Source of the DNA: an uncultured Nitrososphaerales archaeon
GTDB lineage: Archaea; Thermoproteota; Nitrososphaeria; Nitrososphaerales; Nitrososphaeraceae
Length of the DNA: 64,000 bases
Reading direction: 5' to 3'
Assembly (NCBI GenBank): GCA_963713605.1
Contig: CAVQMO010000010.1
Location: forward strand, 448,001 to 512,000
Shown: one piece after another, positions 31,688 to 62,808 of the stretch
Numbering within the stretch: the first letter of the stretch is position 1
How the letters are laid out: every line of letters begins with the position of its first letter
Made by a program: the position numbers and the translations under genes
Notes under the pieces: model-generated
The model's database searches: none
What the model saw: only the letters and a program-made list of their open reading frames with translations
Told to the model about the DNA's origin: nothing

Positions 31688-32066
31688 ATGGCCATCATTA
31701 TCGCAACTATTGCTTCTTTAGCCCTTTTAGTAGTACTAGTTTCTAGCCCCGCCGCAGATGCAAGGTATTCAAACAGTCAGGCTCAATCTCTAGTTTAATG
31801 AGTGTGGTCTAGATGGGACCTCTGGGATCAATTGTGCTAATAATGGTCCTCTGATGCAGGGCGATAGTTTGGCTAGTTCGTCAATAGTTACACAGTTTGG
31901 AGGAGGACAAGGACAGCAAGGACCAGCAGGACCACCACCGACAATAGACAAGGACCACCGAGCAGACGAAATAAGAAATATCATAGACCTTTGGCAGATA
32001 TATCATGCTCATCCAAGTAATGAACTGCCTCCAGGAATTGCATCAGTTAACTATAACGTTAGGTAA
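31688..32066 (+). pseudogene. divergent member of the secreted two-Cys Q/N peptide family with collagen-like Gxx tail, frameshifted
   Basis: Signal MAIIIATIASLALLVVLVSSPAADA, then RYSNSQAQSLV/NECGLDGTSGINCANNGPLMQGD..GQGQQGPAGPP; extra T at 31794-31796. Confidence 0.6.
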
Positions 32067-45234: not shown

Positions 45235-45426
45235 TTGCATTGGACCGAAAATTGTATTTGCAATGAGTGGAAAATAGAATTAATTAAGATAGATAATTCA
45301 AGAACTGAGCTTCGGTGTAGTATATGTCACGGTCTGATTGGTTGGTGGGATGAGCCGCAACGCATAAAGAAGATAATGCCATTCAAGCGAGCTTGGCCTG
45401 AAGAAGAATGTTTGGCCATGTGCTAG
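45235..45426 (+). CDS. small Cys/Trp-rich zinc-ribbon-like protein (copy A)
   Basis: HWTENCIC..LRCSICHGLIGWWDEP; paralog of 61859-62065 with mostly synonymous differences. Confidence 0.75.
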   Translation: MHWTENCICNEWKIELIKIDNSRTELRCSICHGLIGWWDEPQRIKKIMPFKRAWPEEECLAMC

Positions 45427-45440
45427 TTAAAATAGAAAAG

Positions 45441-45451
45441 ATATCTGATTT
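45441..45451. promoter_or_regulatory. palindromic motif ATATCTGATTT upstream of peptide gene 1
   Basis: 69 bp before ATG; same motif and spacing at three paralogs. Confidence 0.6.
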
Positions 45452-45509
45452 AAATGAGAGCCCGATTTTTCACAATGCAGATAAGAATGATTCTCTCGCT
45501 TGCTATTAA

Positions 45510-45752
45510 ATGAATACCAAATACATGGTTATTGTAGCAGCAATGGCAGTAATGCTAGTTGGTGCGACAGCTCTTGCAACGGAAGACGCATTTGCTGGGG
45601 GTAAGAAGAGAGAATACAATCAAGCGACATCTCAGGCCAACGCCTGTGGAAATGGTGAATTGCCATTGAACGTGTTCTGTCAAAACATTGGCTCACAAGT
45701 TCAAGGCGATGAAAACGCAGTAGCAGCCAGTGGCAGCCAAAGCACAGATTAA
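45510..45752 (+). CDS. secreted two-Cys Q/N-rich peptide, copy 1
   Basis: Signal ending AFA; SQANACGNGELPLNVFCQNIGSQVQGDEN. Confidence 0.85.
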   Translation: MNTKYMVIVAAMAVMLVGATALATEDAFAGGKKREYNQATSQANACGNGELPLNVFCQNIGSQVQGDENAVAASGSQSTD

Positions 45753-45765
45753 AACAAATCAGCAT

Positions 45766-45780
45766 CTCTTTCTTTTTTTG
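45766..45780 (+). terminator. archaeal T-tract terminator
   Basis: tctttctttttttg shortly after the stop codon. Confidence 0.55.
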
Positions 45781-45816
45781 TCGTCTGGCTGGTAACACTT
45801 AGATCTAATAGAAAAA

Positions 45817-45827
45817 ATATCAGATTT
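45817..45827. promoter_or_regulatory. palindromic motif ATATCAGATTT upstream of peptide gene 2
   Basis: 73 bp before ATG; 45800-45830 matches 62063-62093 at 30/31 nt. Confidence 0.65.
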
Positions 45828-45889
45828 ATGATATCGTCTCTCTACTTGCTTAATTTAGATAAACTTCACTCTCTCATTAGGCTATCAGT

Positions 45890-46151
45890 ATGAATACAAA
45901 GTATTTCGTAATTGTTGGAGCGATACCAGCTATGCTCATCGGAGCTACAGCATTTGCAACAACAGACAGTGCATTTGCCGGAGGCAAGAAAAAATATGAA
46001 AAAAATCAAGTGATCTCACAGACTAACGCTTGTGGAAATGATGAACTACCACTAAATATTGGATGTCAAAACATTGATCCCCAGATTCAAGGCGATGAAA
46101 ATCAAGTAGCTCTCAGCAGCAGATCAAGCATTCCCATCCATAGCGCCATAA
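45890..46151 (+). CDS. secreted two-Cys Q/N-rich peptide, copy 2 (3' frameshift)
   Basis: SQTNACGNDELPLNIGCQNIDPQIQGDEN; removing one base near 46114 gives VALAADQAFPSIAP*, matching copy 5 (VSLAADQTFPAI). Confidence 0.85.
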
Positions 46152-46220
46152 CAGATAGCTCCACAACGTTCTTCTTTTGATCCTTTTGTTAGCTGTATTT
46201 TCCATATATTGATGGAACAT

Positions 46221-46231
46221 AAATCAGATTT
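46221..46231. promoter_or_regulatory. perfect palindrome AAATCAGATTT upstream of peptide gene 3
   Basis: 70 bp before ATG. Confidence 0.6.
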
Positions 46232-46290
46232 AATTTAGTGCTTGATCTTTCTTAAGATAGAAAAGTAATACGCCTATTACCATTGATAAT

Positions 46291-46524
46291 ATGAACACAA
46301 AATATTTCGTAATTGTTGCAGCAGTGGCGTTAATGTTAGTTGGTGCAACGGCACTCTCTACTACAGATAGCGCATTTGCTGATAAGAAATACGAGAAGAG
46401 TCAAGCTGCATCTCAAGTAAATGATTGTGGTAATGGTGAATTACCATTGAACGTCTTCTGTCAAAATCTATTATCTCAAATACAAGGTGATGGAAACGCA
46501 GCTAACATAATTGGAGTGCAATAA
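46291..46524 (+). CDS. secreted two-Cys Q/N-rich peptide, copy 3
   Basis: SQVNDCGNGELPLNVFCQNLLSQIQGDGN; T8 tract at 46552-46559. Confidence 0.85.
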   Translation: MNTKYFVIVAAVALMLVGATALSTTDSAFADKKYEKSQAASQVNDCGNGELPLNVFCQNLLSQIQGDGNAANIIGVQ

Positions 46525-46736
46525 CAAGCAGACCGGAAGCCGACTATCACCTTTTTTTTGATTTTGAACTTGATGTGAAATTATAGCGTCCTATGATTGA
46601 TGAGGTAATAATGACTAGTCTGAAATATCTAAGATTTTTTTGTTAAATATGATAGAATAGTTATATGACTACTGTATTCTATTGTTTTTTCTTAATTGAC
46701 ATTAACGCCAAGCAACATACTATCTGTTGACAGAGT

Positions 46737-47024
46737 ATGAATTATAATGCAATAGCTATAGCTATATTTGGACTGAGTATGATCCTAATAGCTTTGAATT
46801 CACCTATCTCTACCCATTTAGTGTTTGCAGGTGGTTATGAGAAGAGTCAAGTTATATCTCAAGTTAATGAATGCGGAAACTATTGGTTTCCAGTGAATAT
46901 AATATGCTCTAACTTAAACTCCCAGACCCAAGGTGAAGAAAATAATGTCGCAATAGCCACAACCCCAGAGAGCGGAAGCACAGATTCTAACTCCAACACA
47001 AATTACGGTACTCCATTTCCGTAG
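46737..47024 (+). CDS. secreted two-Cys Q/N-rich peptide, copy 4 (divergent)
   Basis: SQVNECGNYWFPVNIICSNLNSQTQGEEN. Confidence 0.8.
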   Translation: MNYNAIAIAIFGLSMILIALNSPISTHLVFAGGYEKSQVISQVNECGNYWFPVNIICSNLNSQTQGEENNVAIATTPESGSTDSNSNTNYGTPFP

Positions 47025-47708: not shown

Positions 47709-48032
47709 TTGCAAGTGGTATTAAACAAGCAAGAAAAAGAACATCTTGTGGTCAAGCTGTATCACGAAGGTAAGTCAATTCGGGAGATAGCACAGCAAGC
47801 GCATTTATCTTTTGGGACCATAGGCAAGATCGTTAGACGAATAAATAGCCAAGATGAAGATGAAACTGTACCGAATGATATGATTAATAAAAGCAAAGAA
47901 ACTCAGGCATTGAATCTCTTCTTGCAAGGTAAGCGCCCCGTCGACGTTGCTATAGAATTAGATCTCAGCAAGGTAGAGAATATATTACAAGAATTTTGGG
48001 TATTGAACAAGCTAGACGAACTTGCCAATTAG
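47709..48032 (+). CDS. HTH protein (multicopy thaumarchaeal family), probably truncated
   Basis: LYHEGKSIREIAQQAHLSFGTIGKI; GKRPVDVAIELDL. Confidence 0.7.
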   Translation: MQVVLNKQEKEHLVVKLYHEGKSIREIAQQAHLSFGTIGKIVRRINSQDEDETVPNDMINKSKETQALNLFLQGKRPVDVAIELDLSKVENILQEFWVLNKLDELAN

Positions 48033-61858: not shown

Positions 61859-62065
61859 TTGCATTGGACCGAAGACTGCATTTGTAGTCGGTGGATCACC
61901 AATTCCAAGACTTTAGAATTTTTCAAGATAAGTGATTCAAGAACGGAGCTTCGAAGCAGCAGATGTAAAGGTCTTATAGGCTGGTGGGACGAACCTCCAC
62001 GAATAAAAAAGATTATGCCATTCAAACGGAAGTGGTCGAAAGAAGAATGTTTGGCAATGCGCTAG
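61859..62065 (+). CDS. small Cys/Trp-rich zinc-ribbon-like protein (copy B)
   Basis: HWTEDCIC..LRSSRCKGLIGWWDEP..EECLAM. Confidence 0.75.
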   Translation: MHWTEDCICSRWITNSKTLEFFKISDSRTELRSSRCKGLIGWWDEPPRIKKIMPFKRKWSKEECLAMR

Positions 62066-62079
62066 ATCTAATAGAATAA

Positions 62080-62090
62080 ATATCAGATTT
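62080..62090. promoter_or_regulatory. palindromic motif ATATCAGATTT upstream of peptide gene 5
   Basis: 73 bp before ATG. Confidence 0.65.
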
Positions 62091-62152
62091 ATGTAATCGC
62101 CTGATTTTGCTTAATCCACATAAGCATAACACGCACACAGAATGACAGAAAA

Positions 62153-62422
62153 ATGAACTTCAAATATATCGCAATGTTCGCGATAATAGCAGCAACATTA
62201 GTGGGAACAACAGCAGTAACAGTAGATAGCGCTTTTGCCTACGAAAAGAATCAGGCTATCTCACAAGCCAACAGCTGTGGAAATGGTGAACTACCATTTA
62301 ATGTCGGATGTCAAAATATTGATTCTCAGATTCAAGGTGATGAGAACGGTGTATCACTAGCAGCCGACCAAACATTCCCAGCGATCCAAAACAACGAACC
62401 AGAACCAAAACCTGTGAAATAA
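62153..62422 (+). CDS. secreted two-Cys Q/N-rich peptide, copy 5
   Basis: SQANSCGNGELPFNVGCQNIDSQIQGDEN; T7 tract at 62441-62447. Confidence 0.85.
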   Translation: MNFKYIAMFAIIAATLVGTTAVTVDSAFAYEKNQAISQANSCGNGELPFNVGCQNIDSQIQGDENGVSLAADQTFPAIQNNEPEPKPVK

Positions 62423-62808
62423 TTTAGCGTAACCACCATATTTTTTTGATGTTCTAGAGATCAACCATACATGCAGGATTCGTCCTGATATTATAACTAG
62501 TTTATCAAGATAGTTTAAACCATATTTTGCATTTGGTCTGAATTAGTGTATAGCAGATGCTCTTAGTAATAGGTATCTGGTTCTTCTACTAATCATTAAT
62601 CCAAATGAAAAATAAATCGTATACTCAGAATGATAGAAGTCAAACAGAAATGGACTTTGTATCTCTTGAAGAGGACATATTACGCGAGATCATGCTGTTG
62701 TAAGTAGTGGATGCCCAAGACATTATTATCAGAAATACTGTGCGGTCCAACATCATATTATTTAGCCGTCAATCTATCGATAGCCTATCTAGCTATCGAT
62801 CATTGTTA

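Follow-up and report, generated by a model that had tools for sequence, protein, structure and literature searches.

Modular architecture of a strongly expanded archaeal family of signal-bearing two-cysteine peptides suggests a possible self-assembling surface polymer in lineages without a detected S-layer gene

Results

A tandem array of short, signal-bearing two-cysteine proteins

The window analysed here comprises 64,000 nucleotides of a contig from an uncultured Nitrososphaerales archaeon (CAVQMO010000010.1, positions 448,001 to 512,000; assembly GCA_963713605.1), and is part of a 4.09 Mb genome that is 87% complete. It holds four adjacent forward-strand genes for short proteins of secreted type, and a fifth further along. 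Copy 1 (45510..45752, + strand; 80 aa) consists of a signal and a core and belongs to subtype B, with a short polar tail. Copy 2 (45890..46180, +; subtype A) is 96 aa long as assembled and has a one-base frameshift after the core, copy 3 (46291..46524, +; 77 aa, subtype C) ends at the core with IIGVQ, and copy 4 (46737..47024, +; 95 aa, subtype D), a candidate minor subunit, has a YWFP loop and a tail ending in PFP. Copy 5 (62153..62422, +; 89 aa) is again of subtype A, with a QTFP tail. An initial annotation, made from the letters and their open reading frames alone, had called all five at these positions, and the list of ORFs in the window bears this out. Its description of the proteins also stands: exactly two Cys with C-x10-C spacing occur in all five copies, each with a hydrophobic N-terminus that ends, by pattern, in xFA. 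The annotated motif has five matches in the window and 31 in the genome, and a looser version has five in the window and none in 30 shuffles of it. We considered type IV pilins, lipoproteins and Tat substrates and rejected them, since a pattern search of the signals found a class III (prepilin) signal, a lipobox or a twin-Arg motif in none of the five copies (0/5).

The ~86 aa annotated for copy 2 agree with the unshifted subtype-A tail, which would end at 86 aa, but not with the gene as assembled. The frameshift lies near 46112-46115, where the frame leaves the tail typical of the subtype; copy 2 groups with intact subtype-A paralogues in the tree, and the shift is either a real lesion or an assembly error. 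Three features of the window had been missed: a promoter-like element shared by the genes, a small Cys-rich ORF that precedes each of the two loci, and one more family member, the sixth, which is divergent, of collagen-fused type (31688..32066, +) and split by a frameshift near 31795. An HTH gene lies at 47709-48032, with 14 related places in the genome; database protein P0129 is the same HTH fused to a family gene, a fusion that probably arose by deletion or misassembly. In public RNA runs only 0.05-0.17 of the array's words are present and these cannot be placed on the sequence, which weighs neither way.

Upstream elements, T-tracts and a small Cys-rich ORF

Copies 1, 2, 3 and 5 are each preceded by a promoter-like element common to the family, at 45428..45487 (+; matrix match 59.9 bits), 45804..45863 (+; 26.6 bits), 46208..46267 (+; 55.3 bits) and 62067..62126 (+; 77.7 bits), respectively. 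Upstream of copy 4 lies a variant (46663..46700, +) under the matrix threshold, which was seen by eye and is common to subtype D genes in this genome and its relatives. The common element sits ~90 nt before the start in 25 of 28 family genes examined, and the element found before copy 1 is also present in a second genus (g125). A matrix built from 25 family genes, which favours duplicates, finds 35 sites in the genome, of which 32 precede family genes, and none in the reversed sequence; no wider regulon was seen with it. A weak family promoter (20.6 bits) precedes the gene for a 206-aa secreted protein with Tyr-Asn-Pro repeats and no core (G000:C5:270606, - strand). As annotated, T-tracts follow copies 1-3 and 5 and are absent after copy 4; those at 45765..45779, 46552..46559 and 62441..62447 (all +) are, judging from the sequence, likely archaeal terminators of copies 1, 3 and 5. 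Each family gene therefore looks like a promoter-gene-terminator unit of its own.

The small Cys-rich ORF (CxC...CxxC) at 45235..45426 (+), an upstream partner of some peptide loci, is likely a zinc ribbon, and in a second one at 61859..62065 (+) one Cys is replaced by Ser. Both belong to an unnamed family of 60-70 aa with a WW motif and no match in Pfam. Of its 17 matches in the genome, six stop 40-84 nt short of a peptide ORF (0.44% expected at random positions) and 11 have no intact peptide gene after them; among relatives, it is the first element in 18 of 106 clusters. The ORF is under purifying selection (pN/pS 0.30/0.68), and we infer that it may act as a regulator.

Anatomy of the core and its subtypes

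The core is a Q/N/S-rich stretch of 45 residues after the signal, with a disulfide-type loop of variable length. Its fixed columns over 430 cores are Q-7, A-6, S-4, Q-3, N-1, C1, G2, N3, P7, C12, Q13, N14, S17, Q18, Q20, G21, N24 and Q32, and Q and N together make up 27% of it vs. 11% in 308 other secreted-like proteins. The mature chains are net acidic. Divergent members retain the flanking strands, although their loop can have as few as 4 or as many as 22 residues, and the main type is found again, at E 2e-8, with a profile made only from the divergent collagen-fused members. All close homologues examined (120/120) have AxA ahead of the core, an indication that the signal is cleaved after this motif. 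In a covariation analysis of the 430 cores (effective number 122), the top pairs, at z 3.7, are either local or track the subtypes, with no clear strand register.

In a quick tree on 85 columns, which does not resolve subtypes A, B and C as clades, subtype D (13 rows) forms one branch with support 99 and subtype E one branch with support 100. Both are kept across species and genomes. Subtype D comes last in 21 of 22 ordered pairs, and this, together with its being one clade across genomes, fits the suggestion of the initial annotation that copy 4 is a distinct minor subunit; the YWFP type is a candidate conserved minor subunit. Subtype E shows conserved synteny, convergent with a gene for an HtrA/DegP-like secreted protease in all seven loci viewed (7/7). 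The subtype E gene itself is highly conserved (L127:665-808, L203-L214).

Members in g125 have long His-Gly runs before the core (L218, L219, L220, L221, L222, L223), which are possible metal-binding tails. Ammonia-oxidising archaea depend on copper, and these tails in a second genus and the small Cys-rich ORF upstream would likewise suit secreted copper-scavenging peptides with the Cys pair as ligand. We consider such a function highly improbable: the two Cys can be anywhere from 4 to 22 residues apart, the invariant positions are held by Q, N, S and G, which are no ligands, and the His tails are not part of the core and do not occur in the copies of this genome.

A strongly expanded family under purifying selection

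When a profile of the cores is searched against genomes, as the initial annotation had proposed, copy number turns out to be far above five. At E<1e-5 this genome contains 45 cores at 33 loci, the best match to reversed sequence having E 0.046, so that some 40 further copies had been overlooked and the system is larger than had been described. In 33 of the 45, a single frame holds Met, hydrophobic signal and complete core; the other 12 have no simple intact signal-plus-core frame and include frameshifted copies and fusion forms. Frameshifts within the signal region affect many family genes on several contigs of this genome, through assembly error or real decay. The cores are under purifying selection, with a pN of 0.20 vs. 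a pS of 0.72 over 40 cores, and 0.16 vs. 0.65 for the loop. That 45 cores persist with a low pN means that many near-identical products are kept, as expected of a bulk material.

Could the copies be a functionless cassette that duplicates selfishly or by hitch-hiking? Dispersed copies do carry the promoter and sometimes the upstream ORF, broken copies occur, and the lineage is described as heavily duplicating newly originated gene families (PMC7603488). Such a cassette is nevertheless extremely improbable and already largely refuted by selection. In addition, subtypes D and E persist in different species, the latter with its synteny conserved, and viral contigs hold no relative (0/38 candidate stretches), leaving a viral origin unsupported. 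A link of the family to a repeated HTH element was rejected as well, with only 2 of 33 family loci near one (random 2.3%).

Distribution within the Nitrososphaeraceae

Homologues of the family form 3507 clusters at 90% identity and 520 at 50% identity, of which the best 150 of 520 were inspected. Among the homologues listed, source names are 'hypothetical protein' or passenger or generic names and no others, and every organism named with a listed protein belongs to the Nitrososphaeraceae; related loci come from MAGs labelled Nitrososphaeraceae, Nitrososphaerales (TH5895, TH526, TH5896), Thermoproteota or uncultured archaeon. No member was found in 300 genomes of the phylum's other families. 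The core profile is positive in 27 of 200 Nitrososphaeraceae genomes, a second search with a core-only profile being similar, and these include 13/13 genomes of the window's own genus and 7/7 of g125, with at least 20-35 matches in the richest; seven other genomes of the family Nitrososphaeraceae have single or few copies. There is no core in 37 genomes of g136 or in 34 of g124, and weak matches of a full-length profile in g124, g131 and g138, gone with core-only profiles, were discarded as signal-peptide matches. Nor was the family found in the sampled genera likely to include cultured strains. One genome (G378), from a genus in which family members are otherwise rare, encodes a very acidic protein of 541 aa with a single internal core (L033:1300-2922).

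The initial annotation had recognised no named family, and in agreement with this Pfam, NCBIfam, PHROGs and the PDB (sequence and profile) have no match for the five proteins or for 25 cores; in the ESM Atlas there are only unnamed Nitrososphaerota clusters. We found no published description in the open-access literature; subscription papers or supplements may mention it as an unnamed expanded family. The family is real, unnamed and strongly expanded.

Tandem forms and fused passengers

In proteins P0241, P0242 and P0243 the core is repeated head to tail, either wholly or as its first two strands, and P0255 and P0348 add a fourth Q/N strand. The family has a stackable Q/N-patterned repeat that is tandem in some members, a feature of functional amyloids as a kind. 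The core lies within the first 75 residues in 117 of 120 longer relatives and later in three. Pfam passengers occur in 6 of 45 scanned long forms (CARDB, TSP3 three times, PKD and a YncE propeller) and not in the other 39; in 14 more long forms, VWA, CHRD, TSP3 and propeller domains pass the cut-offs and a prealbumin-like domain is just below. Among divergent long forms, 34 of 53 have at least five Gly-X-Y triplets. These passengers (collagen, Ig-like, TSP3, VWA, propellers) are mutually unrelated, and no sortase or other anchor family is present among the 45 + 14 long forms scanned. A module that sits behind a signal and before unrelated extracellular domains, and is mostly alone, has the look of an assembly unit accompanied by minor display subunits. 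At G000:C5:159439-162849 we also observed a long array of Cys-paired repeats before a subtilase-like C-terminus.

The same fixed place between signal and unrelated domains, and the many broken copies, might instead reflect a sorting or surface-attachment tag that is read by another protein, presumably in the manner of PEF-CTERM or the BclA N-terminus, with passenger-free copies as decoys, spacers or remnants. This is distinctly unlikely, as most copies have no passenger and evolve under purifying selection, some cores are in tandem or at the C-terminus, and no processing enzyme is linked to the family in 166 loci.

Signalling or antimicrobial peptides, the former being an alternative of the initial annotation, would also be small, secreted, Cys-paired and multicopy with a common promoter. 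We regard this possibility as very unlikely. The ORF list confirms the annotation in that no enzyme, protease or transporter adjoins the array, and none recurs among the neighbours of the 166 related loci; the same holds for a receptor, exporter or immunity gene, and a RiPP or peptide signal was rejected for want of a linked maturase, exporter or receptor at the array or those loci. Moreover, the cores are conserved rather than diversified, including the loop, the mature chains are net acidic, and fusion to collagen and large adhesin domains would make no sense for a diffusible signal.

Comparison with known assembling systems and structure prediction

The initial annotation had pointed to streptomycete chaplins and to curli. 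Chaplins are described as multicopy proteins of ~55 aa, with short and long forms and two Cys thought to form a disulfide, that make a hydrophobic or protective surface layer (PMC5618241). Like the Streptomyces chaplins (ChpA-H, PF03777) and rodlins (NF041022), the family consists of multicopy, short, secreted subunits with two Cys (the signal being assigned by pattern), but it is archaeal, has ~45 copies rather than 8 and a polar Q/N core, and its long forms carry passengers where those of chaplins carry a sortase anchor. Homology is not supported: PF03777 has no match in the genome at E<=10 (controls, with no Streptomyces among them, gave none over the cut-off) and 0/25 in the cores, and the rodlin model reaches 10.7-12.4 bits vs. 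a cut-off of 75, in the signal region only.

Curli strands follow the pattern N-x-h-x-h-x-Q and are joined by a Gly arc (PMC10192328). The likeness to CsgA/CsgB (PF07012) lies in the QG-Dx-N turn of the family, after which comes a strand whose last residue is an invariant Q; the arc has 3 residues vs. 4, the last strand 9 vs. 7 and the Q-to-Q distance is 11 vs. 10, giving a fixed QX11Q where the curlin kernel has QX10Q. Here, too, descent finds no support, with a profile comparison probability of 0.1% and no PF07012 match on family genes (its control was over the cut-off in 1/14 genomes), and an identity with chaplins, rodlins or curlins was rejected on these sequence tests. No csg machinery accompanies the family, nor does any dedicated secretion, chaperone or nucleator operon of the curli or Fap kind recur in the 166 loci.

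In FapC, one imperfect repeat of 35-40 residues with conserved Asn/Gln forms one cross-beta layer, and stacking is heterogeneous (PMC12392863). The core resembles Pseudomonas FapC/FapB in length and residue bias; the family differs in that a gene usually encodes a single repeat, and in its internal Cys pair, its passenger fusions and the absence of a fap operon. Pfam and a PDB profile search (empty to E=10), the two used for this comparison, gave no match to the cores. An archaeal precedent is the MspA sheath amyloid of Methanosaeta and Methanospirillum, which is extracellular and amyloid-like and has several paralogues per genome (PMC6242892); at 40-61 kDa MspA is unlike the short family peptides, and it is set apart by size and by the empty library scans.

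AlphaFold2 gives a pLDDT of 49.9 and no secondary structure for the monomer (78-row alignment), and a pLDDT of 47.1 and no strands for a natural two-repeat protein (34-row alignment); both alignments are shallow and the repeats few. The monomer result fits a disordered monomer. AlphaFold2 predicts a curli-like solenoid well, curlin monomers averaging a pLDDT of 83 (PMC10192328), and the failed two-repeat model counts against such a fold, though from a shallow alignment. A cross-beta arrangement is suggested by the residue pattern, the behaviour of the repeats and the analogy with FapC.

The missing solenoid would also be expected if the core were a non-amyloid assembly module, namely a beta-prism trimer or short beta-helix holding collagen chains in register, or a signal-tethered two-dimensional coat. 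Of the 53 divergent long forms, 37 have their first collagen triplet at most 15 residues from the core, and three collagen chains need register. Most copies, however, have no passenger to trimerise, and head-to-tail repeats within one chain fit open stacking better. For a tethered coat, it matters that signal cleavage is assigned by pattern alone; the AxA in 120/120 close homologues nevertheless suggests cleavage. Taken as a whole, we think a non-amyloid module of either kind rather unlikely.

The S-layer in family-bearing genomes

The S-layer of Nitrosopumilus and Nitrososphaera, a lattice of a 1200-1770 aa protein, may have the same role as the family, that of outermost protein coat. With the solved Nitrosopumilus protein (PDB 8c8k) as query, matches occur in 32 of 200 Nitrososphaeraceae genomes, including 27/37 in g136, which has no cores, 4/38 in g127 and 1/1 in g126. 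The two core-rich genera gave none (0/14 for the own genus, i.e. 0/13 plus the window's own genome, and 0/7 for g125), and a second query from within the Nitrososphaeraceae gave 0/14 and 0/3 with a positive control; in this survey genomes are incomplete, kin are not independent and two queries may miss divergent genes. By composition filters, this genome has no secreted-type ORF above 800 aa. Most Nitrososphaeraceae genomes have neither an S-layer match nor cores, and one (G404) has both, so loss of the S-layer does not predict the peptide family. With one or two queries, a canonical S-layer gene was not found in the window's genome (G000) or in genera g1, g124, g125, g133, g134, g138 and g139, and so in most of the Nitrososphaeraceae genera sampled. 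Nitrosocosmicus is described in two reports as having no S-layer and a coat that is unidentified (PMC11559005, PMC12448741), and our survey suggests that S-layer loss reaches far beyond this genus.

Discussion

The modular architecture of the family suggests a surface polymer that assembles itself, in organisms for which searches detected no S-layer gene. We propose that single-repeat subunits are secreted and polymerise together, probably in cross-beta layers, to give a fibre or coat on which passengers are displayed, with the YWFP type as a conserved minor subunit; from the sequence evidence, we put the probability of this reading at roughly 0.55. That the core is a self-assembling surface module in some form is likely. 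The initial annotation had suggested a secreted cross-beta fibre or biofilm matrix, and the structural polymer in this proposal gains from copy number, purifying selection, tandem forms, fusions and the canonical S-layer gene not being found; its cross-beta part does not, as AlphaFold2 gave no fold. Also against the proposal are the 12 of 45 cores outside a simple intact frame and the absence of linked chaperone, nucleation or secretion machinery, and no cell anchor is identified for the family.

In the proposed mechanism, subunits would be exported by Sec and cleaved after AxA. The two Cys would form a disulfide closing a surface loop that tolerates 4-22 residues, and three short strands (one ahead of the first Cys, one that starts at the second Cys and reaches QG, and one behind the GDxN turn) may present fixed Q, N, S and small residues as a stacking face, each subunit probably contributing a single cross-beta layer. 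Monomers would be disordered until stacked, as in FapC. The passenger-free types A, B and C could serve as bulk subunits, their dosage raised by duplication of whole promoter-gene-terminator units, and types D and E as minor subunits, i.e. nucleator, cap or anchor. Rarer fusion genes would co-assemble and display collagen stalks and Ig-like, TSP3, VWA, propeller or His-rich parts. The resulting polymer may take the place of the S-layer or form a matrix for aggregation. A bolder version, which we offer tentatively and consider doubtful, is that two uncultured lineages replaced the S-layer with a combinatorial amyloid coat, in which dozens of single-layer, disulfide-looped subunits polymerise together and the core is a plug-in presenting collagen stalks, adhesins, propellers and His-rich metal traps at the cell surface under a common promoter.

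For the coat, aggregation and attachment of S-layer-free ammonia-oxidising archaea, the family provides a concrete, synthesisable candidate in two lineages other than Nitrosocosmicus. One of these is, by its named relatives, the TH5896 group, which a floodplain survey reported as its most abundant genus of Nitrososphaeraceae (PMC12625717). If the proposal is true, the family would be a functional amyloid of archaea with no relationship to MspA, chaplins, curli or Fap, and a natural 45-residue display scaffold that tolerates loop insertions and large fusions. Some of the gene duplication in this lineage that lacks an explanation would also gain a function.
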